In this document: piece after piece, positions 1-64,000 of the stretch
Position numbering within the stretch: the first letter of the stretch is position 1
How the letters are laid out: every line of letters begins with the position of its first letter
Origin: a virus
Lineage: Duplodnaviria; Caudoviricetes
Virus record (IMG/VR): IMGVR_UViG_3300046092_000036
Span: 1,224-65,223 of that record
Reading direction: 5' to 3' (one strand)
DNA length: 64,000 nt
The notes under the pieces: generated by a model
Seen by the model: the letters and a program-made list of their open reading frames with translations, nothing else
Databases searched by the model: none
Told to the model about the DNA's origin: nothing
Position numbers and translations under genes: made by a program

Positions 1-10
1 ACCTACAAGT

Positions 11-610
11 TTGTTCATGGACTACAAGTCAAACATGAATGTGTATCAAAGCAACATGACTACCATGATCGAGGACTTCTATGCAAACTATGCAGACTTG
101 ATCGACCTAGCGAAACATCATATGGGTGCGTTGTTCAATCCCTATGACTATCCAAGTATCGAGGAGTTGCGTAGCAAGTTCGGATTCCGATTGGTATTCT
201 CTCCGTTGCCTGAGGGTGGTGACTTCCGTTTGGATATTCCCAAAGCGGACATGGATGAATTGGGTGAGCAGTATGAGTCAGCGTTTAATGACAGGCTCAA
301 AGATGCCATGCGTGAACCTTGGGATAAGTTGCATAAGAACCTTGTGCATATCTCAGAAAAGCTAACCGACATAGAGGGCGATGACGATAGCAAGAAGCGG
401 TATCACGATACCCTGATTACGAATGCGCAAGAGTTGTGCGGTTTACTTACACACTTAAACATAACGAAAGACCCATTGCTTGAGAATGCCCGCCGTTCCC
501 TCGAGCTAACAATGTTAGGTGTTGATATCGAGGACATTAAAGAACATGCAGAAGTTCGGCAGTCTGTTAAGTCTAAGGTCGATGACATTCTTAAGAAGTT
601 CGATTGGTAA
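11..610 (+). CDS. DUF3150-like early protein, C-terminal part (gene begins left of the window)
   Basis: YPSIEELRSKFGFRLVFSPLP motif typical of DUF3150-like phage proteins; frame open to the window edge. Confidence 0.6.
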   Translation: MFMDYKSNMNVYQSNMTTMIEDFYANYADLIDLAKHHMGALFNPYDYPSIEELRSKFGFRLVFSPLPEGGDFRLDIPKADMDELGEQYESAFNDRLKDAMREPWDKLHKNLVHISEKLTDIEGDDDSKKRYHDTLITNAQELCGLLTHLNITKDPLLENARRSLELTMLGVDIEDIKEHAEVRQSVKSKVDDILKKFDW

Positions 611-15598: not shown

Positions 15599-15680
15599 GT
15601 AGAACAACTCCTTGTTGTTTCTCCTCGGAAGTTAGCTCCTTCCAATCCTCTTAAACCCCGCCTAGTGCGGGGTCTTTTTT
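15599..15680 (+). ncRNA. candidate anti-Shine-Dalgarno sRNA
   Basis: Three CTCCT segments, two hairpins, terminator; 11-12-nt complementarity to four phage RBSs. Confidence 0.55.
15655..15680. terminator. terminator between convergent operons (likely bidirectional)
   Basis: ACCCCGC-CTAGT-GCGGGGT-CTTTTTT. Confidence 0.85.
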
Positions 15681-18600
15681 ATCTCTTGTCTACAGAACGA
15701 GTGCCCTCTACCAAAGGATAAACAAATGGAGCTTGTGCATCTGTTACAGATAAGCCTTGGGACGATTTGCTACGACGCTCTTCACGAGACTGTAGAGACT
15801 TACTAATTGTTTCACCGTCGATAGGTAGCATAGAATTTTTAGTATTAAATTTGTCTACTTGTTCTAGTATTGAATCAACTTTATCGTCGTCATCATTACG
15901 TACTGCTATATCTAAACGATTAAGCAACGTAGCTTTTTCTTTTTCTATCTTTGCAACTATTTGTTTAGCCATAAAGTTAGACTTTTGTATTTGTGCTACT
16001 TCAGTATTTCCAAACCCTAAAGCTTGCGCAGCTAATTTACCTGTTGTGTAAAACTCTGCATTCACAATCTCGTCACCTTTAGGGGTAGTAGCACCTTCTT
16101 TACTTAATCTATATGAAGTCAAACCGCCTCTAAGCCATGCTGGAGCAAGCTTCTCAAAGCCTCTATTTATCTGCCCATTATTAAAATCATCAAAGGCGCC
16201 CGCAATATTTGAGCCTATGCTACCTATAGGACCACTAAAACCAAATATAAAGTTTTGGAAAGCCTCACGAGAAGTATTTCCAGGGCTATCGTCTCTAAAC
16301 CACAAGCCATCTAACGAAGTAGATGCACCAAGATTTAGACCTGTAACTGCAGATAGTGGACCCATTTCAACCCCACGAGCCAATGTTTTAGCATCTTCTT
16401 CACTTAGTCCTAAAGCGTCAGCCAAGTTACTGTCGGGGCCAAAATAGCTAGGAATAAAGGAGTTTCTAAACCATAAATCTAAGTTACGTTTACCAAGTGG
16501 ATTTCCTTCGTCATCTTCATCATAGTCTTCATCTTCTTCGTCACGCATTAACTCACGCACACCTTCTGATACACCCATAATAAAGCTATATAAAGGTAAT
16601 CCTGTAACACCAGCAAACAAACCAGTCATTCCTAAAGTACCAAAGAATTTAATTGCTGCTTCTTTCTTCTCGTCTTTATTTAAGAACGGCAACATACCAT
16701 AGAAGTTACGTACTAAGTACGATGTCATCTGTAGTGGGTAAGTTAAGAATTGTGTAGCTAACTTAGCCCCTGGACTGCCCTTCATTAATCTAGGCTTGTT
16801 GTACTGTGTGTAGTTAAACAAGGCATCATAAGTTAACTGCAAAGCTTTTTCAGTAGCAGCATCAAAAGCAGCTTTATCATCCATACCCTTTTGTTTGTAA
16901 TCAGCGTAGGCTAATTCAAAAGACGACATAAACATAATCTCACGAGAGATACGCTCAGCGTGGTGGAATGCACCACCCATAAAGTTAAATACGCCCCTAG
17001 TCCCCCTACTAACTATATTATGATACTGCCCAGTAGGGACATCAGCCATTGCGGTCATATCTCCCGCATAGGTAGACATAAATATATCTTTGTCGTTAGC
17101 AAAGTTCCAAGCATCTTTTAACGCTTTTCTATACGCTGGGTCTTTGTGCTCAGTAACATACTTAGAGTCACCAATAGAAGGTTGACCCCAATTAGTAGTT
17201 ATATTTCCATCGGCATCTGTTTTAGTTGTGCTAAATTTATTCCATAGTGCACTGTATCTAGCAGCAGTTGCAGTAGCTTTTCCTATACCAAATTCAGCCC
17301 CAAGAGTAGGTAAACCAACAATAGGTAGCTGTGTCATCTGTATTAGTGCCGACTTAGGAGAAGTTAGCAACCAATAGAACACAAACTTGTTACCCGTTGC
17401 AGCGACTTTATTCCAGTCTATGCCTTCATCAGGGATGCTAGGTGTAATCTCATCAAGCGCTCTAGCACTAATTTCTCTAATAAGCACAGATAGTTTTAGC
17501 TTGTCTGGGTTTTGTGCTATCTCCGCATATGCGGCTGCTATGCCGTTACGAATTTTATCTGCATAACTTAGACGGGCTAGTTGATTAGCAGCTGTATGTT
17601 GGCTAGTAATAAAGTTGCGGATTGCGTCGGCGCTAAAACCAGTCTTGCCTTGGCGGTGTACAAACTTACGACGGATGTCTTTATCAGGCAAGGTCATTAA
17701 ATACATCTGATAAATGTTATCCTTAACAGCCTCTATATCCGACATTTTATTGCTATCCAGCATTGCAAAGATTTCTTTAAGCATGTCGCTAGACTCAACA
17801 TGCTTTTCTCTTAACTTGCGTATATCATCACCAACGTCTATATCCCCGTCTTCAATCATTTTAGCTAAGCTACGGTTAGTACCACCAGCTTTATTAAGTT
17901 CAGCAACACGGGCTTCAACCGCAGCATTACGGGCGGTAGCACTTTCAAACATGTAGAACTCACCACTCTTGCCCTTACCTTTGCTAAACCAGAAGTTACC
18001 ATAGCGCATTAACGGGAAGTAAATATCTAACAAGCGGGCTTCTTGAAAAGTCTTAGTAATAGCTGCAATCAATTTGCCCTTTGGAGTAGACGCATCATTA
18101 ATATCTCCAGGTACGTTAGAAGATGCAATCTTTTCTTTTAGTAGCTTTTCATGTAGATCAAACGTTTGCTTGTAGCTATCCCTAGCCATTTTGTATATAG
18201 CATGCCCTTCGCCTTTCCCAAACTTACCTAAGGCATCCCAACCGAGCATGGTAAATTTTTCACCTGTAATAGGGTTATCTAGAACACCACCTTCGTACAA
18301 TAGTTTTATAGCTGCGGTGCGTTCAGTTCTTTGTTTTTTAAGATTAGGTAAAGTCTTAGGGTCGGTAGACGGGTTAAGAATATCGTTTTCTATACGTTTT
18401 AAAGCAGGGTCATTTTGTATAGCAGTTGCTGCATCAGGGTGTTTAGCAGGGTCAACTTGTAACAACGTAGCTGCATTTATTACATCAGCCAATGCTTTGC
18501 CACCTTTTTTATATTTTTGATTAAAGTTAATCCAAGCAGGGACTTTTTCTGCTAGTTCACGAATCATACGAGTGCGCATACCAGCCATATCATCTACGGC

Positions 18601-21600
18601 ATTATTAATAACTTTTAAGTTGCTAAGCTTGTCTCCTGCTATGCGAGTAATATCGTCTGTTGTAAAAGCGCGCATTACAAGTTTTAATCTACTTACGCTT
18701 ATGGTGTTATACACAGCTTTTATTAGTCGAACAGCATCACTAGCGTTTCTAGTCTGCATTATTAACTGACCAATAGAGGTATTCATGTCAGTGCTACTAT
18801 GAGACAACCTAAGTTTTCTAAGTGTGGTCTCTACCATCTTTAGTTGTTTAGGCGCTTTAGGTGGCTTAGGTGCTTTGGGTTGCTTAGCCTTAGCTGCTGA
18901 CGGTTCACTAGACTCAAATGCCATGTCTGGTAAAGGTGCAGATAACAACTGATCGGTAACAATAATTAGGTCTTGGAGAGCGGACATATGCTTCTCGTCC
19001 ATATCAAACAACTGACGTATGCTCTGTACAAATCTAGTAAACAACCGATCAATAAATCCAGGTGCTTCACCCGCATAAGTTAGTTCTTTGTTGCCAGGAG
19101 TAATAATAAGAAACTCTTGCATGGCAGGTAAAGACATACCGTAAGCTACAAATTCTTTAATATCAGTAAAGGCTTCGTCAGGAATGTTTAACATGTCCTG
19201 AGTTAGTACCCCTAGATTGCCTGATTCTAATGCTTCAACTTTAAGGCGATCATAGTTTTGCTTAGCTGCATCCATAAGATACATAAGCTCGAGTATTGGT
19301 ATAGCTAGGGACCGAGGTGTAGGTGTGTAACCTTCTTTTAACTCGCTTAATTTAAAATAAGCATCAATACGAGCAACGGTTGCAGCATGTAAAGCTTCGT
19401 GTAATACAACAGTATTGTTAATACCGCCTTCACGCATTACATAAATAGTCTTTCTATCAGGCACGTATAGACCCGCTGCCCCCACCATCTTGTCTCGTAA
19501 GAACGTAGTAGGCATGTCGTCTGGGCTATCTACTACAACAAACTCAACCCCAGTAAGGAAAGGTAATAAACGTTTAGCTAGTAATTGTTCAAAAGGATTA
19601 CCATTTCGAGCTATATAGTTAACCGCACCTTTAGCAAAATCAAATTTCTCAAATGCCGTGTTATCCTGTCCATTAGTGGATTCGCTAATTTGGGCACGGC
19701 TAGGTGCGCCTATTTTTTGCTTAGCTTCGTGTCTTTGCTTACCAAGCTCACGCTCTTGAGGGTTAGCTTTCTCTAGTAAAGCAGTAGCTCTTTTACCCGC
19801 AGCTTTATTTTTTTGGTCTGGATCAACAGATAAACTATGTGCAATCTCAAGAGCGCCTATGCGTTCTTCTCTTAAACCAAACAGAGTATCCTGAGCTTCT
19901 TTCTCAGTGCCAGAGTTCTCAATAATGGCTTGCTCGTCAACTACCTTACCTAGAATCTTCTCAGCTTTAGTAATGTCAGTAATAGCGTTGCGACCTATTT
20001 CTTGACGTCCCTTACGATATGCAGCGGCAGCGGCTTGTTGCTCTGGAGTCTTGTCAGTCTTTGGTCTACCACGAGGCTTACCAGTTTTAACTGGGGGTGT
20101 TATGTCTTCAACAGGAGCTTCTTCCTCAACTATTGTTGTATCCGCAGGTGGGGCTATGTCGCCTTCAGCTAAGTTTTCTAAAGCTATTAATTCTTCTACT
20201 ATGGCACGACCTTGCGCCTCATCAAAAGTACCAGCTTCAAGAATGTTTCTTAGGTCTATTCTTCTTTGTTCTTGTTCAGCAGTTAATGCGCTTGTTGGAG
20301 TAGGTGCACCCATACCAGACGCCATTTGTTTTTGACGTAGGCTTTCTTTAGCATTTTTTAATGCTTGCTCATCTGTTAACTGAGGATACTTAGCTTTTAG
20401 TTCGGCAACTAGTGTATTGAGTTCAGCTGCTTCTCCGCCTCCAACATCATTAATAGTCGTGCCAGTTGCTGCCAAGTCTCCTTGGGTAGTGCTTGCAGTT
20501 CCTGTGTCGGTTCCGCTTGTTCCGCTAGGCACAGAAACGCCTGATTGATCTGTTCCACCGATAATTGATTCAAGTCCATCTAGTCCACCTTCCTGCAGTA
20601 TGGCATCACCAGCAATAGCAAAAGCTTCTTCTTCAGTATAAGGACGTCCACCTGTTCCATCTTTTTTTACTGTCTTAGGATTTACTGTGCCTTTTAATCT
20701 TTCAACTTCATCATTAAATTGTGCACCTAAAGCCTCCATAGCTCCAGGTTTGTTAAGCATTTCAAGAGTTTTCTTTTGGTTTTCAACTGCTTTAGCTTCT
20801 TCTTCTCTTTTTGCAATGGTAGAAGGTAAACGTTCATAGGCTTGTTGCCCACCAAATGCTCCTGTCTCTAATAAGCTACTTGGGCCTTCACCAGCGGCTT
20901 CTAAAAGTGCTCGACCAGGTTTTTTAACCTCACCTTCAGTAGCAAGCTGTGCAAGTATTTCACCACCAGCACCACTAACCATTTGCGCAACTGGTTGAGC
21001 TACTCCAATATTGACAGCTTCTTTTGCAAATTGATTTTTTATTACTCCTTTAGGTACAAGCATTTTGCTAGCTAATCCAGCAGCTGCTGTATCTGCAACA
21101 GCAATAATAGAACCTCGTGCTAAGGCATGCTCATACGCTTTAGCAAATAGTGTGGGATCGTTTAATGCTTTGTTAACCGCTATAGGGTCTCTAGTATTGA
21201 TTCCGTTATCTTGGAAGTATTCCATAACTCCAGAGGACAATTCACTAGCAAAGCTAGTACTACCCATAGCCAACGCACCCACAGTAGGATTACGTGTTAT
21301 AGCACCCAATATAAGAGCAGGAGCAACCTGTGGCAAACTTTCTAAAGACACACTTGCCATAACCCCAAAAGGGTCAGCTTGAAATGCTTGAAATGCCTGT
21401 CGTGCAGTTGTTACATCATTTAATAGTTCAACGGCTGGTCTTTTTTTAATTTTACTAACTTCTGCTTGAACACCCATTACTTTCTTTTGTGCTTCTGCTT
21501 GCCGTACCTGCAATGATTTAATTGCGGCTTCAGCTTCTTCTGGTTGAAGAGGGGTCATCTCTCCAGTTAATGGATCTCGTGGACCGACCTTGCCTTCTCG

Positions 21601-22053
21601 TATTGCATTAATTTCTTTTTGAAGACTAGTAATTTCTAAGTTTGGAACAAGAGTTGATAAACCTTTAACCCCTGCTTTTATTGGATCAGTCTGCCTCTGT
21701 AAAAAAGGCACCTCTGCTTCGTATTTTGCAGTTGCTTCTGCCAGTTGCTTCTTTTGTTGCGCAGTTAAACCTGCACCTGGTTGCGCTGCAAAGGCCCCTC
21801 TAGGGGTTTCCATTTGTGAAGTTACTTCTTCAGGACTACTTATAGGGGAAACTTCTGTTGTCGGGGCAACTGCTTTAGCTACAGGTTTAGCTACAGGTTT
21901 ATCTTTTGCAATCAGATGGGTCAATATGTCGGTATCAGCAAGACCCGCTTCCCTAGCCCCTGCTAGGTTGTATTTGTATTTGTTGGCAAGGTAGTTATTA
22001 ATCTCAGCGTCGCTAAGACCTGCTTTCCTTGCACCTTCAACGTCATATGCCAT
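15679..22053 (-). CDS. giant internal virion/ejection protein (2124 aa) with zincin-like HExxH
   Basis: Last late gene; VVLHEALHAAT; helical, with hydrophobic segments. Confidence 0.75.
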   Translation of the reverse strand: MAYDVEGARKAGLSDAEINNYLANKYKYNLAGAREAGLADTDILTHLIAKDKPVAKPVAKAVAPTTEVSPISSPEEVTSQMETPRGAFAAQPGAGLTAQQKKQLAEATAKYEAEVPFLQRQTDPIKAGVKGLSTLVPNLEITSLQKEINAIREGKVGPRDPLTGEMTPLQPEEAEAAIKSLQVRQAEAQKKVMGVQAEVSKIKKRPAVELLNDVTTARQAFQAFQADPFGVMASVSLESLPQVAPALILGAITRNPTVGALAMGSTSFASELSSGVMEYFQDNGINTRDPIAVNKALNDPTLFAKAYEHALARGSIIAVADTAAAGLASKMLVPKGVIKNQFAKEAVNIGVAQPVAQMVSGAGGEILAQLATEGEVKKPGRALLEAAGEGPSSLLETGAFGGQQAYERLPSTIAKREEEAKAVENQKKTLEMLNKPGAMEALGAQFNDEVERLKGTVNPKTVKKDGTGGRPYTEEEAFAIAGDAILQEGGLDGLESIIGGTDQSGVSVPSGTSGTDTGTASTTQGDLAATGTTINDVGGGEAAELNTLVAELKAKYPQLTDEQALKNAKESLRQKQMASGMGAPTPTSALTAEQEQRRIDLRNILEAGTFDEAQGRAIVEELIALENLAEGDIAPPADTTIVEEEAPVEDITPPVKTGKPRGRPKTDKTPEQQAAAAAYRKGRQEIGRNAITDITKAEKILGKVVDEQAIIENSGTEKEAQDTLFGLREERIGALEIAHSLSVDPDQKNKAAGKRATALLEKANPQERELGKQRHEAKQKIGAPSRAQISESTNGQDNTAFEKFDFAKGAVNYIARNGNPFEQLLAKRLLPFLTGVEFVVVDSPDDMPTTFLRDKMVGAAGLYVPDRKTIYVMREGGINNTVVLHEALHAATVARIDAYFKLSELKEGYTPTPRSLAIPILELMYLMDAAKQNYDRLKVEALESGNLGVLTQDMLNIPDEAFTDIKEFVAYGMSLPAMQEFLIITPGNKELTYAGEAPGFIDRLFTRFVQSIRQLFDMDEKHMSALQDLIIVTDQLLSAPLPDMAFESSEPSAAKAKQPKAPKPPKAPKQLKMVETTLRKLRLSHSSTDMNTSIGQLIMQTRNASDAVRLIKAVYNTISVSRLKLVMRAFTTDDITRIAGDKLSNLKVINNAVDDMAGMRTRMIRELAEKVPAWINFNQKYKKGGKALADVINAATLLQVDPAKHPDAATAIQNDPALKRIENDILNPSTDPKTLPNLKKQRTERTAAIKLLYEGGVLDNPITGEKFTMLGWDALGKFGKGEGHAIYKMARDSYKQTFDLHEKLLKEKIASSNVPGDINDASTPKGKLIAAITKTFQEARLLDIYFPLMRYGNFWFSKGKGKSGEFYMFESATARNAAVEARVAELNKAGGTNRSLAKMIEDGDIDVGDDIRKLREKHVESSDMLKEIFAMLDSNKMSDIEAVKDNIYQMYLMTLPDKDIRRKFVHRQGKTGFSADAIRNFITSQHTAANQLARLSYADKIRNGIAAAYAEIAQNPDKLKLSVLIREISARALDEITPSIPDEGIDWNKVAATGNKFVFYWLLTSPKSALIQMTQLPIVGLPTLGAEFGIGKATATAARYSALWNKFSTTKTDADGNITTNWGQPSIGDSKYVTEHKDPAYRKALKDAWNFANDKDIFMSTYAGDMTAMADVPTGQYHNIVSRGTRGVFNFMGGAFHHAERISREIMFMSSFELAYADYKQKGMDDKAAFDAATEKALQLTYDALFNYTQYNKPRLMKGSPGAKLATQFLTYPLQMTSYLVRNFYGMLPFLNKDEKKEAAIKFFGTLGMTGLFAGVTGLPLYSFIMGVSEGVRELMRDEEDEDYDEDDEGNPLGKRNLDLWFRNSFIPSYFGPDSNLADALGLSEEDAKTLARGVEMGPLSAVTGLNLGASTSLDGLWFRDDSPGNTSREAFQNFIFGFSGPIGSIGSNIAGAFDDFNNGQINRGFEKLAPAWLRGGLTSYRLSKEGATTPKGDEIVNAEFYTTGKLAAQALGFGNTEVAQIQKSNFMAKQIVAKIEKEKATLLNRLDIAVRNDDDDKVDSILEQVDKFNTKNSMLPIDGETISKSLQSREERRSKSSQGLSVTDAQAPFVYPLVEGTRSVDKR

Positions 22054-46110: not shown

Positions 46111-46111
46111 A

Positions 46112-46192
46112 ATATTCTCCTATATACAAGTTAAACCTATTAATCGGTATATCGTCTGCTGGGGCAGTTTAATAGGCTGGTATCACCCAGAT
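46112..46192 (-). ncRNA. structured 5' leader with pseudoknot next to the SD
   Basis: CCTATTAA/TTAATAGG, CTGC/GCAG, ATATAC/GTATAT pairings. Confidence 0.45.
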
Positions 46193-46198
46193 GCCTTG

Positions 46199-46226
46199 AG
46201 TTTACTACTTTTTTAAGTTTGTGCAA
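46199..46226 (-). promoter_or_regulatory. sigma70-type promoter, 16-bp spacer
   Basis: TTGCAC-N16-TAAACT. Confidence 0.65.
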
Positions 46227-46239
46227 GGGGTTTTAAAAA

Positions 46240-46267
46240 TAAAAAACCCCGCTTTTTGGGCGGGGTC
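46240..46267 (-). terminator. intrinsic terminator after major capsid gene
   Basis: ACCCCGC-CCAAAAA-GCGGGGT-TTTTT. Confidence 0.85.
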
Positions 46268-46287
46268 TAGTACGACTTTGGTACTGA

Positions 46288-55857: not shown

Positions 55858-56242
55858 ACCCTACCCCCCTAGTGTTTCAATTATTTTACAAAAAATATAT
55901 ACCCCCCTGGGGGGTATTGAAATAAAAAAGGTATGGGGGGTGTTCTTAAGGTACGTCTTGGCGGAAGTCTGTGGATATTTGAGTAGGGGGAGGGGGGTTA
56001 AGTACTTAATGCCGATGTTATATATACGCTACTAACCAGATATACCTTAAGCACCTGGTGACGTGTTAGCACGAGAAAAGTGAGGGCAAATAAAAAATAT
56101 TTTTTAAAACGATGTATCTCTTGTGCAAACTAGTGTGTATAGGCGGACTGATACTTCTTTTTTTAAAAATGGGGTGTAGGGGTCGCTTGGTTTTTGAATG
56201 CCTAACATTGTTAGGGTAGGGGTAATTATTGTTTCTGATAAC

Positions 56243-56272
56243 TTGCTTTTCGTATCACAAATAGAGTATAAT
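56243..56272 (+). promoter_or_regulatory. early promoter 1
   Basis: TTGCTT-N18-TATAAT. Confidence 0.65.
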
Positions 56273-56334
56273 AGAACCAAGAGAAAAGAAAAACATTCTC
56301 GATCACTTTATAAACCAACAATGGAGTAATCAAT

Positions 56335-56847
56335 ATGCAAGATTTTATCAGTAACCTAGAAGAGCTAATCAACAATGCCCGTGCTAAGGTATTCGATCAG
56401 TATGAGTCAACATATGGCGCAAATGTTGAGTACGCTAAACTACTCAACCAAAAATGGGACGGTTTCGATTGGTTTGAATTGAAACATACCGACACCTCCG
56501 ACGAAGGCAAGGCGGTGAAAGGTGAGGGTGATCGGTTTCGTAAGGGTATCAAGGATTGGCATTCTAACCCTAGTACAGCATGGAAACAGATCAGAGAGCA
56601 TGCCCGTACTGATCGTTATGGTAAGCAAGTAGTGGCAACAACCGAGGGTGAAACAACCGAGGGTGAAACATCAGGCGACGCAAAGCATAACCGCTCACCT
56701 GAATTACGCAACATTGAGGAGTTGACCGTGTTGTTTAAATTCAACCGTCGCCAAGAGTCATTGAGCGATAACCTCAAGGATTGTCAACGCAACATTATCA
56801 AAGCCCTCGAATCAATGGGTGTTGATATTGGAATGATCGGGGACTAA
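56335..56847 (+). CDS. first early protein, paralog A
   Basis: Shares YGANVEYAK, FDWF, HSNPS, KHNRSPELRN, FNRRQESLS with 57788..58315. Confidence 0.85.
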   Translation: MQDFISNLEELINNARAKVFDQYESTYGANVEYAKLLNQKWDGFDWFELKHTDTSDEGKAVKGEGDRFRKGIKDWHSNPSTAWKQIREHARTDRYGKQVVATTEGETTEGETSGDAKHNRSPELRNIEELTVLFKFNRRQESLSDNLKDCQRNIIKALESMGVDIGMIGD

Positions 56848-56855
56848 CCCGCTTT

Positions 56856-56886
56856 ACCTACCCTAACATTGTTAGGGTAGGTTTTT
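56856..56886 (+). terminator. extended palindrome (27 bp) around the motif plus T-run
   Basis: ACCTACCCTAACA-T-TGTTAGGGTAGGT-TTTT. Confidence 0.45.
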
Positions 56887-56906
56887 AACCCTAATGGAGT
56901 AATCAT

Positions 56907-57044
56907 ATGGTAATCAAATACAAATCCCGTTTATACAAATTGCTTTCACTTATGCCAATACATGTAAGCCCGTACCAAATGAATTTTGTAAGATACGGCT
57001 CAAGTTATACAGATTATGTTGCAGTCACTTGGCGAAAATACTAA
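56907..57044 (+). CDS. 45-aa hypothetical protein
   Basis: ATGGAGTAATCA RBS context identical to that of 56335. Confidence 0.6.
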   Translation: MVIKYKSRLYKLLSLMPIHVSPYQMNFVRYGSSYTDYVAVTWRKY

Positions 57045-57051
57045 CCTCACC

Positions 57052-57077
57052 AAATCCCCGAAAGGGGATTTTCTTTT
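57052..57077 (+). terminator. intrinsic terminator
   Basis: AAATCCCC-GAAA-GGGGATTT-TCTTTT. Confidence 0.85.
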
Positions 57078-57265
57078 GCCCATGCCCTAACATTGTTAGG
57101 GTTTTTTTGTTTCCATCATTTTTAGGTTTTTTGGAAATGATAGTTCTCAGGAGGGTGGAAGCCCAAAGCCTCGCATCCAAGGTTTTGTCATGCTGGGAAT
57201 GACAGTTCTCAGAGGAGTGGACGCCCATAGTGCCCCTAACAATGTTAGGCTCGGCCCAGAAAAGG

Positions 57266-57625
57266 TTTTCTAATATTGCATCCTTTAAAATCAAGGACTT
57301 ACACCTATTATTAGAAAAGCAAAACAAGAATCTAATAATACAAAACCCTTTAGAATCAAGGACTTACAAGCGTTTTTGGGGTATTATTAGAAAAGTGCAG
57401 AAACTTGTGAGTGAAGTTCTAAAGAGAGCCTTCAGCGCAGTGCAAAATCTTACAATGGCAGAAAAACTCTCTGGGGGTATATAATTTTTTAAAAAGTCTA
57501 ATAATCTAATAATACCTAATTTTCTCCTCGCAAAGCCTTACACCTATTGAGTTTTACATTATTAGAAAATACATTAGAAATTCCCTCACTTTTCTAATAT
57601 TACCCTTATTTTCTAATATTACCCT
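57266..57625. repeat. AT-rich TCTAATA/TATTAGA repeat field with two IHF-consensus sites
   Basis: About ten CTAATA/TATTAG copies in both orientations; AATCAAGGACTTA at 57289 and 57354. Confidence 0.7.
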
Positions 57626-57680
57626 TTGCCCTAACAATGTTAGGCTCGTTCCGAAATATTTTTATTTCTTTCCAAAAAAC

Positions 57681-57709
57681 TTGATCTGTCTCTTATATTG
57701 TGTTATACT
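57681..57709 (+). promoter_or_regulatory. early promoter 2
   Basis: TTGATC-N17-TATACT, extended TG, A-tract upstream. Confidence 0.85.
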
Positions 57710-57787
57710 TTAGGTATAGAATCAAAAAGCGTTAAAGAGTTAGTTGGGTTCTCTATTTAACCTAACATTGTTATGGAGTAGTCAAAA

Positions 57788-58315
57788 ATGTTTAACTTAT
57801 CAAATCAAGGTGTAGATGTAGATTCAATCGTTGCAGAAAAGCGCCAAGGCGCAATCGAGGCTCAAACCTCTGCTTATGGTGCTAATGTGGAATACGCAAA
57901 AGCCCTTAATCTGAAGTTCGACCAATTCGATTGGTTTGCAGTAAGCCACACCGATTCTTCGGATGAGGGCAAAGCAGTCCGCAAGGAAAAGACAATTTTC
58001 TTTGATGGCTTGAAAGCGGGCAAACACTCAAACCCTTCTAAGGTTTGGAAAGATGTGCGTGATTATGGGCTTGAGGCTCGCTATGGCAAACCCGTTGTAT
58101 CTACTGAAGAAGGTGCAGAAGGTGAAGTTCCCGAAGGCTCGGATGACGCAAAGCACAATCGTTCCCCTGAGTTGCGTAACCTTGAGGAATTGACAACCCT
58201 CTATAAGTTCAACCGCAGACAAGAATCTTTGTCCCCAAAACTTGCTAAGGTGCAACAAAAAATAAGTGAAGCCCTTGCAGAAATGGGGGTTGATATCGGG
58301 ATGATTGCAGACTAA
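57788..58315 (+). CDS. early protein, paralog B
   Basis: Paralog of 56335..56847. Confidence 0.85.
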   Translation: MFNLSNQGVDVDSIVAEKRQGAIEAQTSAYGANVEYAKALNLKFDQFDWFAVSHTDSSDEGKAVRKEKTIFFDGLKAGKHSNPSKVWKDVRDYGLEARYGKPVVSTEEGAEGEVPEGSDDAKHNRSPELRNLEELTTLYKFNRRQESLSPKLAKVQQKISEALAEMGVDIGMIAD

Positions 58316-58333
58316 CCCCTGCCCTCCCCGTTC

Positions 58334-58362
58334 ATACCCTGCCAAGTGCAGGGTATTTTTTT
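58334..58362 (+). terminator. intrinsic terminator
   Basis: ATACCCTGC-CAAGT-GCAGGGTAT-TTTTTT. Confidence 0.85.
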
Positions 58363-58393
58363 GTCCATGCCCTAACAATGTTAGGTCTTTCCT

Positions 58394-58429
58394 TTTCCGC
58401 CATTTCCGCCATTTCCGCCATTTCCGCCA
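58394..58429. repeat. 9-bp tandem repeat TTTCCGCCA x4
   Basis: Read directly. Confidence 0.9.
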
Positions 58430-58580
58430 TTTTTGCCGTTAGGTTTTGCCGATTGTCATTTTGGGAAATGACAGTTCCTAGAGGGGTGGTAGCCCGAGGG
58501 AATCCCCCCAAAAAGGGGGGCAGAGCTTTGCTCTGGCACGAAAGCGCATCGGAATGAGGGTCGATTTCTCGCCAAAAAAC

Positions 58581-58609
58581 TTGATCTGTCCAATAAACTG
58601 TGTTATAAT
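58581..58609 (+). promoter_or_regulatory. early promoter 3
   Basis: TTGATC-N17-TATAAT, extended TG. Confidence 0.88.
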
Positions 58610-58732
58610 ATAAGATATATATGAGAATAAAGATTCGCCCTCATTTTATATTTTGTTCAACCCCTAACATTGTTAGGTTTCCACAATCAGAGCTTGCTCT
58701 GTTTCGTGGGTTTATTTGTGGAGGTAGTCAGT

Positions 58733-58810
58733 ATGAAAGAGATATGGGACATTTTGCTTGGTATTGCTCTAGTAGTCTTTATGGTTAATTTGATATGGGG
58801 GGTAATGTAA
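58733..58810 (+). CDS. 25-aa TM peptide
   Basis: GGAGG RBS; MKEIWDILLGIALVVFMVNLIWGVM. Confidence 0.55.
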   Translation: MKEIWDILLGIALVVFMVNLIWGVM

Positions 58811-58812
58811 TC

Positions 58813-59091
58813 ATGGGTGCATTCAAACAGTTATCTATTGACTTTGGCAAGGGTTTTGAGCCAGCTAGCCCTAACAATGTTAGCCCTACTCAAGAATTGG
58901 TAGCAAGGTGGGAACAGTATGCAAACGACAACCGCCTCAACCCTAAGACCAAGAAGTACAAAGAGAATCAGCATGCGTTCTTATGGGGTATTGGCTGTGC
59001 CTTACAGGAGAAAACACCTATGTTGCTATCCCTATGTATGGTATCAGGGCGTGATATCGCCTCACTAAGAGAACGCACTCAACCAAGATAA
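58813..59091 (+). CDS. hypothetical early protein
   Basis: GGGGG RBS. Confidence 0.7.
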   Translation: MGAFKQLSIDFGKGFEPASPNNVSPTQELVARWEQYANDNRLNPKTKKYKENQHAFLWGIGCALQEKTPMLLSLCMVSGRDIASLRERTQPR

Positions 59092-59104
59092 GAAGGAGCT
59101 AACA

Positions 59105-59308
59105 ATGTTATATGGCATGGACTGTGAATGTGGTTTAGAAATACCGATTGGCAGACTCGACTTAGGGTATACGACATGCCTTAAGTGTGGCGACAAAGTG
59201 GCAAAAGGTGTAAAGCATATTGTGCAAATCCCATATTCCAAGGGTGCGTATCAATATATCCACAACCCCCAAGACTTGTGCTTTACCAACCCAAAGAGGA
59301 CAACATGA
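59105..59308 (+). CDS. small Zn-finger protein
   Basis: CECG..I..GRL.LGY.TCL.CG; AAGGAG RBS. Confidence 0.75.
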   Translation: MLYGMDCECGLEIPIGRLDLGYTTCLKCGDKVAKGVKHIVQIPYSKGAYQYIHNPQDLCFTNPKRTT

Positions 59309-59559
59309 CCGAAGAGCAGATGCTACGCAAACTAAGGCAACGAGAAAGGGAGTATCCATATTGGAATGCGTGTCGGGTTATGTATGAACATTTAGAGCAT
59401 GAGCAATACCTACGCAACAGGGCAGAAGATGCTTATTTGCGATGGCTCAGGGATAACAACCCCGACAGTATTAAGTATAAGTATCCGAACAACCCCAACG
59501 ACCATGAGAAGTTTATGTGGATTGAAGGGTATTTAGACAACCGAAGGGGGAGCAGATGA
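59305..59559 (+). CDS. hypothetical protein
   Basis: GAGGA RBS, ATGA overlap. Confidence 0.7.
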   Translation: MTEEQMLRKLRQREREYPYWNACRVMYEHLEHEQYLRNRAEDAYLRWLRDNNPDSIKYKYPNNPNDHEKFMWIEGYLDNRRGSR

Positions 59560-59876
59560 AGATCAATGTAGACGGATACCTAAACTCGGAGTGGGAGAAA
59601 TACTGCGAAGAGCAGGGGTGCGACCTAACGGAACACGACCTAACATTGTTAGGTGAGCATCTTAAACAGGTGGAAGAAGCAAAGGCTAAGGCAGAGGAAT
59701 ACCAAACGCTATACGACATTGCCCTAGTTAAAAGTTATGCCTACTGTGAGGAATACAACATTGCAACAGGCAGAGTAGAAGAACGGGGTGGTGCAAGACT
59801 ACTCAAGCAGGGTTACATTGATGGCTTTCTTGCAGGGTTCGCACACAAAATGGGGGGTGGACATGGTGGTGATTAA
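59556..59876 (+). CDS. hypothetical protein
   Basis: Coupled ORF. Confidence 0.7.
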   Translation: MKINVDGYLNSEWEKYCEEQGCDLTEHDLTLLGEHLKQVEEAKAKAEEYQTLYDIALVKSYAYCEEYNIATGRVEERGGARLLKQGYIDGFLAGFAHKMGGGHGGD

Positions 59877-60039
59877 GTTATATCAAAAGCCAGATAAGCC
59901 AGAGTTCTATGCCTATGTGCGTAGTGGTAAGTGGGGATTGCTCGTGACTTACCCAATAAGTAAGCCCGACAGTAAAAGAAGTGCAAAGTGGATAGACCCT
60001 AACATTGTTAGGATTGATTGGATAAAGGAGTTTGTATGA
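59863..60039 (+). CDS. hypothetical protein
   Basis: GGGGG/GGA RBS. Confidence 0.65.
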   Translation: MVVIKLYQKPDKPEFYAYVRSGKWGLLVTYPISKPDSKRSAKWIDPNIVRIDWIKEFV

Positions 60040-60146
60040 CTAGATTTGAAAAGATGTGCATGGGTGCGGTAGTAGTTTGTTTGTGTTTGTTTTTACTAAG
60101 TATTCCGTTTGTTTTAGTAGCCTCTTATTACAGGGGGTGCGCATGA
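60036..60146 (+). CDS. 36-aa TM peptide
   Basis: AAGGAG RBS; MTRFEKMCMGAVVVCLCLFLLSIPFVLVASYYRGCA; ATGA overlaps at both ends. Confidence 0.65.
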   Translation: MTRFEKMCMGAVVVCLCLFLLSIPFVLVASYYRGCA

Positions 60147-60325
60147 AAGAGTATTACAAAGGGCAACGCATTAGTGAGTTGCTAACGCAGATAGATGAGT
60201 TGAGCAAAGCGTTGGAAGATAACCACTATGAGTATGAGAACGAAACTCAGGCATTAAGAGCAGTAGAGGCAAGGACTACGCTAGCAATAGCGAAGGCTAA
60301 ATTAACCGCATTACAAGGAGAATAG
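60143..60325 (+). CDS. coiled-coil hypothetical protein
   Basis: GGGGG RBS. Confidence 0.65.
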   Translation: MKEYYKGQRISELLTQIDELSKALEDNHYEYENETQALRAVEARTTLAIAKAKLTALQGE

Positions 60326-60326
60326 T

Positions 60327-60554
60327 ATGAAAGATGGATTGTTTACACAGAACCCTGAGTATCACGAAAATGGTGACACGATTGAAGATGTGATTCTAGA
60401 TGCACAAGATGCGTTCTATACATTTGACGAAGAGCAAGGCAATATCTTTGATGATGATGACCGCATGCTCTTTTGCGAAGGATACAACCAAGGTGTTGAG
60501 GCAATGCGTAAGCAAGTCCTAACATTGTTAGGTCGCATGGCAGAGGAGGAGTAA
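60327..60554 (+). CDS. acidic hypothetical protein
   Basis: AAGGAG RBS. Confidence 0.7.
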   Translation: MKDGLFTQNPEYHENGDTIEDVILDAQDAFYTFDEEQGNIFDDDDRMLFCEGYNQGVEAMRKQVLTLLGRMAEEE

Positions 60555-61096
60555 TGGGATACCGAAGCCAATTAGCTGGATGTATCAGCGTAGATGTAGT
60601 GCGTAAAGAAGATGAGCAAGGCAGTCATTACTTTGATTACGACAAGGCTAAGTTCAAGGAGATGATTGGGTTCATCAAGTTGTCTAGGTTCTATGAGTTA
60701 TGGCAAATAAGCAACACCTCAGATGCGGATAGCTTTGGGTGGCAGAATGGCAAGTTCATCTTGTATGGCAACGATTGGAAGTGGTATCCCGACTACGATG
60801 ATGTGAAAGCATGGAACGAGTTATGGGAGCAGATGCAAGATATCGAGGGTATATCAGGCTACTTTGTGCGAGTGGGTGAGGAGAACGATGACATACAGGA
60901 GATGGAGTTTGGGGATGACCCATGCTACGACCACTTCCATGCGTTTACTGCCCTTAGCTTTGATGCAGAAGATTACTTAGGAAAGAGAGATACAGATGAA
61001 GCAGAGACCAAGAAAGAAGATACCGCTACAACGCAACCCGATTGTGCGGGCGCTAATCATGCAACCGAAACGCAACAACGGGAAGCACAAGCCTAA
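60554..61096 (+). CDS. acidic hypothetical protein
   Basis: MGYRS, WKWYPDY.DV, FVRVGEE.DD. Confidence 0.75.
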   Translation: MGYRSQLAGCISVDVVRKEDEQGSHYFDYDKAKFKEMIGFIKLSRFYELWQISNTSDADSFGWQNGKFILYGNDWKWYPDYDDVKAWNELWEQMQDIEGISGYFVRVGEENDDIQEMEFGDDPCYDHFHAFTALSFDAEDYLGKRDTDEAETKKEDTATTQPDCAGANHATETQQREAQA

Positions 61097-61163
61097 CATT
61101 GTTAGGACTAAGAGAGTAGGTATAGAAGATTAAACGCAGCGCTACTAAACGAGGAGAGTAATT

Positions 61164-62093
61164 ATGTACGGACACCATAGGAATTCGGGGATTCATGCCC
61201 TTGCAAACTACAACGAGGCATTCCACAAGTGGGAGAATACCAAGCCCATTCGTGGTAGGGGTGTAGATGTAAGACCGCTTGGCAACAGACGACAGGCTGA
61301 CCAATACAAGATTGAGTTGCTACCCGAGGGGGGTGTGGCTTGTGTTATGTATAGGACAGCAGTAGTAACCTTCTTTACAGACGGTGATATCCGCATCATG
61401 AATGATGATTGGAATAGTGTATCGACTTGCAACTTCATTGACGAGGTTCTATGGAATATAAGCAGTCGGATATACAACAACGATTTGTATATCAAGACTA
61501 GGCAAGGTGAGTTTGCGCTAGGCAAAGAGGGTTTATGGCTACGCATGAATGGGGAGGGAAACCTTGAGGTTAAGACTGACAGGCTAAAACCCAAGTATGT
61601 GCATGCGATTGACCGCAAGAAGGCTAACAATGTTAGGGCGCAATACAAGCCGTTCCTTGATTATGTTAGTCGGATGAGCAGACTCAAAGGCAACGACCCT
61701 TACCCTGCATCAGAGATGGTTCGGATGTTCCCTCATGCTATCTACAAAGATGTGCCTGATATGGGTGTGGAGTTAAGCGATCGTGCTTACGACAAGTGGA
61801 CTGATGCAATTACGAACCTATTTACCCTGATGAATTCAAAGGGTGAGAGTCAGCATGACGATTTCTACAAGGCTTTACTGCTACTAGCAAAGTCATATGG
61901 CAACCATAAGTACCATGACCCTGAGGGCTATGTCGTGACAGAGAAGAAGATCAAGGTAGCCCTTGACGATTTGATTGTGGGATACCACCGAGATGATGTG
62001 CTTGTGCCTAAGCAAGTGCCACTAGGTGTAGCTCGCAGAGATAGCAATGGCAAATACTTTAGAGACGGATGGCGCAGATTACATGAGGCATAA
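61164..62093 (+). CDS. hypothetical early protein
   Basis: 309 aa, GAGGAG RBS. Confidence 0.8.
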   Translation: MYGHHRNSGIHALANYNEAFHKWENTKPIRGRGVDVRPLGNRRQADQYKIELLPEGGVACVMYRTAVVTFFTDGDIRIMNDDWNSVSTCNFIDEVLWNISSRIYNNDLYIKTRQGEFALGKEGLWLRMNGEGNLEVKTDRLKPKYVHAIDRKKANNVRAQYKPFLDYVSRMSRLKGNDPYPASEMVRMFPHAIYKDVPDMGVELSDRAYDKWTDAITNLFTLMNSKGESQHDDFYKALLLLAKSYGNHKYHDPEGYVVTEKKIKVALDDLIVGYHRDDVLVPKQVPLGVARRDSNGKYFRDGWRRLHEA

Positions 62094-62138
62094 CAATGTT
62101 AGCTCGTTCCGAATTATTTTATTTTCTAGGCAGAATCC

Positions 62139-62167
62139 TTGATCTGTCTAGTATTATGTGTTATAAT
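62139..62167 (+). promoter_or_regulatory. early promoter 4
   Basis: TTGATC-N17-TATAAT, extended TG. Confidence 0.88.
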
Positions 62168-62266
62168 ATAGTATATATAAAATAATAAATGTTAAAGTTT
62201 TCAACCCCCTAACAATGTTAGGGCTAACGCAGTAGATGTAATCAACCACAACAGGAGAAACAAAGC

Positions 62267-63334
62267 ATGGCTGAAATCAATTTCGGTAAAACAGTAACAC
62301 TAACGCAAGCATCAAACATCATTCTTTCAACCCCGATGAATCGCTACTTCTTAAGGGGTGAGCCAGGAATTGGCAAATCGTCTCTACTTAAGTCGCTATC
62401 AGCAAAGCTCCCTAACCACGAGGTCTCTTACATTGATGTGCCTAACATGGACTTGGGTGATATCGCAATGCCCGTCATTGATCGGGAGACAAAGACTACT
62501 GCCTACTACCCTAACAGTAGATTCAAATTGCATCTGGGTAAACCCGTCATAACAATGTTAGATGAGTACACGAAAGGTGCTGACCCAATTAAGAATATGT
62601 TGCACCCCATGTTGGAGGTGGCAAACCCTCGGCTCGGTGATATTGCTTTGCACCCCGAATCAATTACTTTTCTGACAGGCAATCTATCTAGTGATGGTGT
62701 AGGCGATTCCCTGAAAGCTCATAGTATGAATCGTATTATTCCACTACATGTAAGAAAGCCTGATGCTGAGGAGTGGATGGCATGGGCAATCGAGAATGAT
62801 ATTTCGCCTGAGATTATTGCGTGGGTTAGACAATTCCCTCATGCAATGGCTAGCTACTTAGATGAAGGGCAAGCAGACAACCCGTATATCTTCAATCCAA
62901 AGAAGATGCAGATGGCATTTGTATCGCCTCGCTCCCTCGAGAGAGTATCTAACATTGTTAGGGTGCGGTCACAGTTGGATGCCGATAGCTTGATATGTGC
63001 AATGAGTGGTGCGGTGGGTGAATCAGCTAGTCGTGATATGCAAGCATACATAGAGTTCTCAGATCAGCTTCCTACATGGGAGTCGGTGATTGCTAATCCT
63101 AAGACTGCCCTAGTTCCCGAGAGTGCGGGTGCATGCGCAATCATTGTGTTCGGTGCTATCAGTAAGATGGATAAGCAGAGTATGCCTAAGTTCATGGATT
63201 ACATTGAACGATTCCAACCCGAGTGGCAAGCATGCTTTGCTATCAACATTGCTAAGTCACCAAGCAAACAGTCTATTGCATTCTCTAGTAGCAAGTTTGC
63301 TGATTGGGTTCAGAAGAACGAGGACTTACTGTAA
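62267..63334 (+). CDS. MoxR-like AAA+ ATPase
   Basis: GEPGIGKS, ITMLDE, TGN, NR, SPRS. Confidence 0.88.
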   Translation: MAEINFGKTVTLTQASNIILSTPMNRYFLRGEPGIGKSSLLKSLSAKLPNHEVSYIDVPNMDLGDIAMPVIDRETKTTAYYPNSRFKLHLGKPVITMLDEYTKGADPIKNMLHPMLEVANPRLGDIALHPESITFLTGNLSSDGVGDSLKAHSMNRIIPLHVRKPDAEEWMAWAIENDISPEIIAWVRQFPHAMASYLDEGQADNPYIFNPKKMQMAFVSPRSLERVSNIVRVRSQLDADSLICAMSGAVGESASRDMQAYIEFSDQLPTWESVIANPKTALVPESAGACAIIVFGAISKMDKQSMPKFMDYIERFQPEWQACFAINIAKSPSKQSIAFSSSKFADWVQKNEDLL

Positions 63335-63504
63335 TGAGTGAGCCAAAAAAACTAGGTAGACCACCTCTATCAAGAGAGGGTCGTATTAGTAGAGAAAGAA
63401 TAAGGCAAATCCAAGAGCATGCGCTAGGCAAGTTGCGTAGGTTGATGTATGCCAAAGGTTATAAGTTCGAGGATTTTTTCGATGATTCAAAAAAGAAAGG
63501 CTAA
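63334..63504 (+). CDS. 56-aa sigma70 region-4.2-like mini-protein
   Basis: ISRERIRQIQEHALGKLR vs RpoD VTRERIRQIEAKALRKLR; TAATG coupling. Confidence 0.7.
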   Translation: MSEPKKLGRPPLSREGRISRERIRQIQEHALGKLRRLMYAKGYKFEDFFDDSKKKG

Positions 63505-63506
63505 CA

Positions 63507-64000
63507 ATGTTAGGTGATATTCAAGTAGTGAAAGACAAAGAAGAACGCAGATTGAGCAAGATTAAGATTTCAATTATGCGTAATCCTAAGTTCGCATTAT
63601 GGTCAGGCTTGATGACTGTCGGTAAGACAAGCGTAGATGACAACATCCCAACCGCATGCACTAATGGTAGAGATGAACGCTATGGTCGTGAGTTCATTAA
63701 GACTCTAGATGATAAAGAGTTGGCATTCGTAGTGTTACATGAAACATTGCACAAGGCTTATCGTCATCTCTTTACATGGCGCAGACTTAATGATGAGAAC
63801 CCTCATCTTGCAAACCTAGCGTGTGACTATGTAATCAACCTTCAGCTAAAGGATATGGACAAGGATGAATTACTAATCGCCATGCCTCAGCGTAATGGTA
63901 AGGCAATAGGTGCAGTCGATGAACGATTCCGTGGCATGAACGCTAAACAAATCTTTGACATACTCAAGGAGGAGGATGAGGGTGGAGGAGGAGGTGGTGG
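63507..64000 (+). CDS. DUF2201/VWA-associated metallopeptidase-like protein (3' truncated)
   Basis: IPTACTNG, FVVLHETLH, NLACDYVIN; follows the AAA ATPase. Confidence 0.85.
   Translation, partial: MLGDIQVVKDKEERRLSKIKISIMRNPKFALWSGLMTVGKTSVDDNIPTACTNGRDERYGREFIKTLDDKELAFVVLHETLHKAYRHLFTWRRLNDENPHLANLACDYVINLQLKDMDKDELLIAMPQRNGKAIGAVDERFRGMNAKQIFDILKEEDEGGGGGG

Follow-up and report, generated by a model that had tools for sequence, protein, structure and literature searches.

A conserved 56-residue phage protein resembling part of sigma70 region 4.2

The open reading frame at 63334–63504

This study concerns a small gene near the right-hand end of a 64,000-nucleotide window of phage DNA (Duplodnaviria; Caudoviricetes). 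The window is the whole stretch analysed, and corresponds to bases 1224–65223 of the 65,223-bp virus record IMGVR_UViG_3300046092_000036, which is rated 100% complete. Three genes lie there in close succession on the plus strand: a 355-residue AAA ATPase gene (62267–63334), an open reading frame (ORF) of 56 codons and a stop (63334–63504), and the 5′ part of a gene for a putative metallopeptidase of the DUF2201_N family (63507–64000). The small ORF runs from an ATG at 63334 to a TAA at 63502–63504. Its translation, MSEPKKLGRPPLSREGRISRERIRQIQEHALGKLRRLMYAKGYKFEDFFDDSKKKG, contains KKLGRPPL at residues 5–12 and ISRERIRQIQEHALGKLRR at residues 18–36, as the initial annotation, made from the letters alone, had read it. 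A Shine-Dalgarno-like GAGGA (63320–63324, plus strand) stands 9 nt before the ATG, which has one base in common with the TAA of the ATPase gene, and only 2 nt separate the stop codon of the small ORF from the ATG of the next gene. The encoded protein is strongly basic, with a pI of 10.3.

The ORF is a real, conserved phage gene. A word-indexed protein search returned 20 homologues of 50–68 residues (E = 3e-26 to 2e-8), and a scan of viral contigs gave 46 loci, 32 of which (L002–L033) carry a small ORF of the 56-residue type. The remaining 14 encode full-length sigma factors, 12 of them of 255–275 residues and two of 330. The core of the protein is under purifying selection, with a median dN/dS of 0.107 and a maximum of 0.31 (31 codons, 15 sequences, 105 pairs, in many of which synonymous sites were saturated). 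In a strain variant from a public run, 6 nt are inserted in frame at window position 63364, in the N-terminal arm, a change that matches the 58-residue homologue P0004. Fusion to the ATPase by frameshifting or read-through is ruled out, as the ATPase frame reads TAA and then immediately TGA, and as a gap of about 90 nt lies between the two genes in four relatives (L002, L019, L027 and L029).

The truncated family, as we call these short proteins, is phage-only. When one genome per bacterial species was scanned, all 35 matches were partial ones to the helix of cellular sigma factors, and no full-length small homologue was found. Among 50,697 phage records, searched for isolate phages, neither megablast with positions 61000–64000 nor tblastn with the 56-residue protein gave a match, and tblastn with two of its longer relatives (see below) likewise gave none. 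The stretch recurs in many freshwater metagenome runs; in nine of them half or more of the sampled words were present, and the 20 runs listed came from 14 studies.

Retained parts of sigma region 4

The stretch ISRERIRQIQEHALGKLRR had been taken for the −35 recognition helix of a sigma70 factor, and Pfam, PDB-profile, NCBIfam and BLASTP comparisons all bore out true homology to sigma region 4.2. The Pfam family Sigma70_r4 (PF04545) aligned with residues 18–35 only, against profile positions 32–49 of 50, that is, with the recognition helix alone. In a six-frame search of the whole record the ORF was the sole Sigma70_r4 match (19.8 bits), and a precomputed PF04545 match exists for nine of the 20 small homologues. 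When a family profile built from 21 members was compared with PDB sequences (69 distinct sequences at E ≤ 1), the best E-value was 3.6e-7 and the best 60 of the 69 were all sigma factors; region 4 of RpoS (6fi7_A, 6ido_A, 5ipl_F residues 296–328) aligned over profile positions 17–49. NCBIfam ranked the RpoS C-terminus first (E = 7e-6). By BLASTP, residues 12–49 aligned with residues 291–328 of an RpoS-like 330-residue protein from a viral contig, ungapped and with 39% identity (E = 8e-8). The recognition-helix motif [ST]RER[IV]RQI..AL.KLR is present in the protein, and together with the tail it matches the final ~38 residues of RpoS with no gap; RpoS is the closest sigma factor, followed by RpoD/SigA and RpoH.

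These comparisons and a structure prediction divide the protein into four parts. AlphaFold2 (AF2), run with a 32-row alignment, predicted coil for residues 1–19, a helix at 20–41 and a short helix at 45–48 (mean pLDDT 73, 87–89 in the helix). An N-terminal basic arm containing G8-R9-P10 (residues 1–18; 63334–63387, plus strand) is thus predicted to be coil, and is replaceable among relatives. The recognition-helix (H4) equivalent follows, SRERIRQIQEHALGKLRRLMYAK (residues 19–41; 63388–63456, plus strand), placed by the Pfam and PDB-profile matches and by the AF2 helix. The next ten residues, GYKFEDFFDD (residues 42–51; 63457–63486, plus strand), are the equivalent of H5, the far C-terminal tail of RpoS and RpoD; they align ungapped to the RpoS end GLNIEALF, and include the short helix. 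A basic tail, SKKKG (residues 52–56; 63487–63501, plus strand), seen in the translation and alignment, ends the protein.

Much of sigma is missing. Helix 3 of the helix-turn-helix (HTH) is absent, as shown by the Pfam profile, the AF2 model and an alignment (A5) in which the basic arm occupies the place of MTLxEIAxxxG in relatives with a complete HTH. Region 4.1 (H1–H2, the major part of the β-flap contact) is also absent, since only 18 residues, predicted to be coil, precede the recognition helix, and there is no region 2 or 3. The loss of H3 and region 4.1 removes the basis for canonical −35 binding and most of the surface that would contact the flap. The 56-residue protein is not a sigma factor, and differs from members of that family also in having ALGK where they have ALRK. 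The likeness is a partial homology, restricted by the alignments to H4 and H5 of region 4.2 and closest to RpoS.

The protein does stand alone, as initially claimed: among 916 candidate fused or longer homologues none reached E ≤ 0.01, and Sigma70_r2 (PF04542) had no match in the whole 65,223-bp record, in a search whose control was positive in 11 of 14 genomes. The further statement that the window holds neither a phage RNA polymerase (RNAP) nor a full sigma factor stands for sigma. For RNAP its support is an absence of annotation hits: none of the annotation matches in the window is an RNAP, several large ORFs being without a family match, and PF00940 (single-subunit RNAP) had no match in the record, with a control that was equally silent. 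The model of the 56-residue protein is too small for a fold search, which accordingly had nothing to show at E ≤ 10, and a homodimer prediction (two copies, the 32-sequence alignment A2) scored 0.02 against a mark of 0.42, which speaks neither for nor against a dimer. A likeness to sigma region 2.2 of IQEHALGKLRRLMYAKGYKFED (window 63409–63474, residues 26–47; IQEGNLGL...KGYKFS) was rejected as probably due to chance (4.5–4.8 bits, i-E-values 200–240).

Relatives that keep the whole HTH are common in metagenomes. An exhaustive profile search gave 1,785 proteins at E ≤ 1e-3, true sigma factors included, and 13 at E ≤ 1e-10. Many of the 40 matches listed are proteins of 50–110 residues with a complete TLxEIAxxLGxSRERVRQIE HTH followed by a RGYKxEDFF tail, which we refer to as full-HTH mini-sigma4 proteins; of 80 further viral loci, 30 encode such a protein. 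One of them was predicted to fold as H3-H4-H5 (pLDDT 92–94), and the best Foldseek rows for this model were all sigma region 4 (1ku3, rmsd 1.2 Å over 35 columns), with E-values of 0.5–1 that are not significant. By hhalign the truncated family matched the full-HTH proteins (A3) with a probability of 99.3 and E = 2.3e-20 over residues 15–54 (40 columns). Both groups have ALGK, in contrast to the ALRK of cellular sigma factors, and both have the tail G-[YI]-x-x-[ED]-D-[FL].

From residue 15 onward, therefore, on the evidence of these alignments, the truncated family is homologous to stand-alone mini-sigma4 proteins of phages. Such proteins (60–110 residues) are already known under annotation labels, as ‘Sigma-70 region 4 domain-containing’ or ‘sigma factor-like helix-turn-helix DNA-binding’ proteins, and share with the 56-residue protein homology from helix to tail, ALGK and GYxxEDFF. 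The nearest ESM Atlas clusters bear the same labels, with a score of 0.87 that we treat as a lead only. Unlike the labelled proteins, which have the full H3-turn-H4 and clear the Pfam Sigma70_r4 cut-off with 46–49 bits, the 56-residue protein has no H3 and scores 20.7 bits. It is a truncated variant rather than a typical mini-sigma4 member, and while small Sigma70_r4-only phage proteins are known as labels, the form with H4 and H5 and no H3 is new. Judging from the shared sequence features, it probably descends from full-HTH phage proteins, a basic arm having taken the place of helix 3; recent capture of a host sigma is probably not its origin. A literature search turned up no functional work on phage proteins that consist of sigma region 4 alone or of a truncated form of it, nor on the DUF2201 module in phages.

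Alignment A2, of 32 sequences of the truncated family, showed M1, E21, R24, Q25, Q27, A30, K33, R35, G42 and D47 to be invariant, and S19, R20, R22, I26 and K44 to be nearly so. We take E21, R24, Q25, K33, R35 and R20 to be the equivalents of sigma70 E585, R588, Q589, K597, R599 and R584, a mapping of our own onto the sigma70 numbering. Two loci (L021 and L022) have SRES and SREA at the start of the helix.

The N-terminal 17–18 residues are, by contrast, interchangeable. They read PKKLGRPPL, KQRGRPRL, VRGRPKKPP, KNKDVVYAQIK, EVTIKKRVFK, ARGVKGS or KPKKRKVVKR in different members, and differ even among phages whose ATPases are 97% identical. All 32 aligned members have a pI of 9.6–11.8. The initial annotation had called the arm AT-hook-like. 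An AT-hook has the core R-G-R-P flanked by basic residues, and the HTH of the Hin type has a GRPR minor-groove arm. The likeness to both lies in a GRP core within a basic stretch just N-terminal to the recognition helix, with QRGRPR, VRGRPKK and KKGRPK among relatives. The window itself has LGRPP (K-K-L-G-R-P-P in full), and Pfam AT_hook gave no match at E ≤ 1. GRP occurs in 20 of the 32 aligned members, [KR]GRP in nine, and the remaining 12 lack GRP altogether. As a family feature the description applies in part, to a basic, often GRP-bearing arm before the helix.

Promoters, neighbouring genes and dispersed palindromes

Three near-identical promoter-like sites of the form TTGATCTGTC-N9-TGTGTTATAAT lie on the plus strand at 57681–57709 (where the −10 is TATACT), 58581–58609 and 62139–62167. 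The third, a promoter-like TTGATC-N17-TATAAT with TGn, heads the unit of ATPase gene, small ORF and DUF2201 gene, and is conserved upstream of the ATPase gene in relatives. By eye, TG stands one base 5′ of TATAAT or TACAAT in all 25 of the upstream-of-ATPase sequences listed (the window and 24 relatives), and the −35 boxes there vary between TTGATC, TTGACA, TTGACT, TTGCAT and TTGTAT. From their sequences, the three sites and those upstream of the ATPase gene are identified as TGn/−10 promoters. A promoter-like site in the late region (46111–46287; TTGCAC-N17-TAAACT, found by eye) is without TGn.

The ATPase (AAA_5, phrog_1297) is related, at a distance of 22–26% identity, to the N4 gp24-like ATPases of Schitoviridae. 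The downstream gene encodes an HExxH motif and runs off the end of the record; its full-length relatives add a VWA-like DUF2201 domain. The PHROG/RefSeq label ‘HNH endonuclease’ carried by this peptidase/VWA gene looks mislabelled, because the Pfam matches are to DUF2201_N and DUF2201. The triad of ATPase, variable small gene and DUF2201 peptidase/VWA gene seen in the window, its relatives, L049 and L050 recurs in N4-like phages, as in LUZ7 gp037–039 and 98PfluR60PP gp10–12. In Schitoviridae the gene between the ATPase and the phrog_1314 gene encodes an unrelated protein of 153–164 residues, and neither LUZ7 gp038 and 98PfluR60PP gp11 nor two small ORFs upstream of the 98PfluR60PP ATPase gene bear any visible relation to the 56-residue protein.

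Two other groups of phages have full-HTH mini-sigma4 genes near the same module. In a sister clade the gene lies 1.7–2 kb upstream of the ATPase gene, and the slot between the ATPase and VWA genes holds an unrelated Cys-rich ORF or is empty. In a third clade the mini-sigma4 gene immediately precedes the ATPase gene. The labelled phage proteins, too, are often found near the ATPase/VWA module.

The early regions of the window also contain a dispersed 15-bp palindrome, CCTAACA(A/T)TGTTAGG, at 24 sites, all within 505–2855 and 56201–63514 (for example 2377–2391, 57086–57100, 62208–62222 and 63500–63514). With up to three mismatches there were 47 strand matches against 2.5 expected, a number reached in none of 100 shuffles. 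At 13 sites the middle base is A, and at the other 11 it is T. Several copies lie on gene junctions, where TAA is a stop codon and, in some, ATG is the next start; others lie inside ORFs. The copy at 63500–63514, GCTAACAATGTTAGG, takes in both the TAA that ends the small ORF and the ATG that opens its downstream neighbour. Hairpin energies lie between −2.5 and −10.2 kcal/mol, and the copy at 57086 is followed by U7. Each of the three promoter sites has a palindrome 43–56 nt downstream of the −10, and two of the three are preceded by a palindrome-GCTCGTTCCGAA-A/T-rich sequence. The palindromes recall the promoter/stem-loop cassettes (PeSLs) of T4-type phages (PMC2839356 and PMC4122927), and resemble either such cassettes or stoperators.

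Every one of the 32 clade loci has the palindrome core, and L051–L130 all lack it. The six sister-clade loci all have a different dispersed palindrome, ATACTGTCAGACAGTAT, in 7–10 copies. It even falls within the reading frame of the sister clade's own mini-sigma4 gene (3684–3694 in both L051 and L061), where it imposes a conserved peptide, EILSDS (P0048, P0050, L051, L052 and L061). The third clade has a mini-sigma4 protein and no dispersed palindrome. Its loci have clustered GGATAATAG repeats in both orientations, 7–8 copies per ~300 bp (L117 1683–1959, L113 1377–1653 and L133 3848–4134), which look like the iterons of an origin or a regulatory region.

Elsewhere the window is a tailed-phage genome. 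Genes for replication (DNA polymerase, helicase, DUF927 primase, exonuclease) lie on the plus strand, and the terminase, portal and structural genes on the minus strand. Next to the structural genes lies a 2,123-residue ORF (15679–22053, minus strand) with an LPD39 ‘large polyvalent protein’ domain and, over its last 800 residues, matches to DarB-like antirestriction PHROGs; its product is probably a polyvalent protein that is injected. Two early plus-strand ORFs have features of DNA-binding proteins by eye: that at 1706–1975 is ribbon-helix-helix-like, with no Pfam match, and that at 1953–2381 has an N-terminal HTH-like stretch and KRGRPRQ, fused to DUF3310. Rfam gave no match on the whole window. 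The record breaks inside the DUF2201 gene, whose missing 3′ part, together with the start of the next gene (window 2–610), is placed in record bases 1–1223. From the position of this break and the sizes of the gene's relatives, we infer that the assembly is circularly permuted, or the genome complete.

Candidate modes of action

The reading that we favour, tentatively and with rather less than even confidence, is that the 56-residue protein is a minimal nucleic-acid-binding transcription regulator. It would be expressed as part of the middle operon headed by the TGn promoter at 62139. Its sigma-like helix would lie in the major groove and the basic, GRP-bearing arm in the adjoining minor groove, at a target site that may be sigma-like (of the −35 type) or of another kind, and binding would damp or redirect transcription by host RNAP. 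We prefer this reading because the nearest relatives are HTH proteins of the sigma4 type, because the charge and the arms are of a DNA-binding kind, and because the residues that by our mapping match DNA-contacting residues of sigma70 are invariant or nearly so in the clade.

Several observations weigh against it. Helix 3 is lost, and the Sigma70_r4 match (E = 2.9e-4, 20.7 bits) falls below the 24.1-bit gathering cut-off. As modelled, the single amphipathic helix with an exposed hydrophobic face would need a partner, and would fit protein binding equally well. In remote relatives the equivalents of E585 and R588 are altered: L135, the one new helix variant from a metagenome scan, has SRQRIGQIQ, and P0029, P0037 and P0039 are altered too (viral-contig scans with P0039 and P0029 gave no new variant). 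The palindrome, as a candidate DNA target, shows no co-variation with the helix. Lastly, RNA cover consists of two 151-nt contigs from one metatranscriptome run, which span 62038–62302 only, short of the small ORF, and could include DNA carry-over.

Alternatively, in a sharper form of what the initial annotation proposed, namely competition for −35 elements or the flap tip, or action as a decoy, the protein could act as a mimic of sigma region 4 on RNAP itself, a possibility that we regard as real but unlikely. H4-H5 would then occupy the β-flap tip where region 4 of the host sigma normally docks, or titrate a factor that binds sigma4, so that host −35-dependent promoters would fail while the TGn/−10 promoters of the phage would work. 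T4 gp33, a flap-binding stand-in for sigma region 4, and the T4 anti-sigma/co-activator AsiA offer possible functional parallels, as small phage proteins that replace or remove the sigma4/−35/flap contact with TGn/−10 promoters still active. For AsiA this is described in the review PMC2988021; the outcome here would be AsiA-like, though reached by mimicry. No sequence relation to either T4 protein was seen, and AsiA binds sigma4 rather than looking like it. The kept tail, which aligns ungapped to the far C-terminus of RpoS, corresponds to H5, and the same review describes H5 of sigma70 as normally embedded in the β-flap hook and the TGn/−10 class as immune to loss of the sigma4/−35 contact. 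All three strong phage promoters found belong to this class, and the 25 listed sequences 5′ of the ATPase gene show TGn by eye. To go by the title of a reference cited in PMC6755090, a single set of C-terminal sigma70 residues is targeted by both MotA and the flap tip, and the hydrophobic face of the helix has no intramolecular partner in the AF2 model. Mimicry is at odds, however, with the absence of H1 and H2, which supply the remaining contacts to the flap, and with the very basic character of the protein and its DNA-type arms. Moreover, the late-region site at 46111–46287 is without TGn, so blanket loss of −35 recognition would hurt the phage.

A composite of DNA binding and mimicry seems improbable to us. 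The FEDFF tail would fill the β-flap hook by the RNA exit channel, displacing region 4 of the host sigma, and promoter DNA or nascent palindromic hairpins would be gripped by the arginine-rich helix together with the GRP arm. The outcome could be sigma appropriation or N/Q-like termination control, with TGn/−10 promoters spared.

It is also improbable that the protein serves as an accessory or adaptor subunit of the ATPase and DUF2201/VWA pair, for instance by tethering it to DNA or to a substrate. This reading derives from gene position only. The small gene lies between both genes in all 29 clade loci listed (of 32 in the clade), wherever flanks exist, and is translationally coupled to both. 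Full-HTH relatives are also near the pair: among 30 small-ORF loci, 13 have the ATPase and/or VWA gene no more than 3.5 kb away, in three arrangements. Yet the other 17 have no such neighbour, and the slot between the ATPase and VWA genes is variable, with a Cys-rich ORF or nothing in the sister clade and ORFs of 153–164 residues in N4-like phages. The linkage could be functional, or could be inherited synteny of one phage supergroup.

It is very improbable that the protein binds the dispersed palindrome as a dimer, on DNA or on RNA hairpins, so as to silence early genes or modulate termination. The restriction of the palindrome to the early region, its numbers far above expectation and its presence in all 32 loci of the clade with the truncated protein, but not in L051–L130, are what such binding would lead one to expect. 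So is the different palindrome of the sister clade with its full-HTH protein. Moreover, the 10 other early ORFs compared with Pfam have no DNA-binding match save a weak one to HTH_Tnp_IS630 (E = 0.012, below the cut-off; ORF 1953–2381). Nevertheless, the residues R-E-R-x-R-Q are identical in the two clades and the palindromes are different. Conversely, L135 has its divergent helix but 13 copies of the window-type palindrome, and L021 and L022 have their variant helices and the same palindrome as the window. The third clade has a mini-sigma4 protein with no dispersed palindrome to bind, and the ORFs at 1706–1975 and 1953–2381 are, by eye, alternative candidate binders. As the co-variation test failed, we rate this reading low and treat the palindromes as a separate finding. 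That the gene is the decaying remnant of an HTH gene, with no function of its own, is hardly credible: the loss of helix 3, very small size and hypervariable N-terminus would suit it, but the core is under strong purifying selection with synonymous sites saturated, the ORF is intact in all 32 loci and in L135, and the observed indel is in frame.

Phage take-over of host RNAP is known mostly from a few model phages, and the stand-alone mini-sigma4 family is common in metagenomes. In a widespread group of freshwater phages, a conserved 56-residue piece made of H4 and H5 and held under strong selection could prove to be the smallest DNA-binding module yet seen to derive from sigma. If, alternatively, the mimic reading is true, it would represent a new way of disabling the contact between sigma4, the flap and the −35 element. 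The protein is small enough to synthesise, and both ideas are therefore directly testable.

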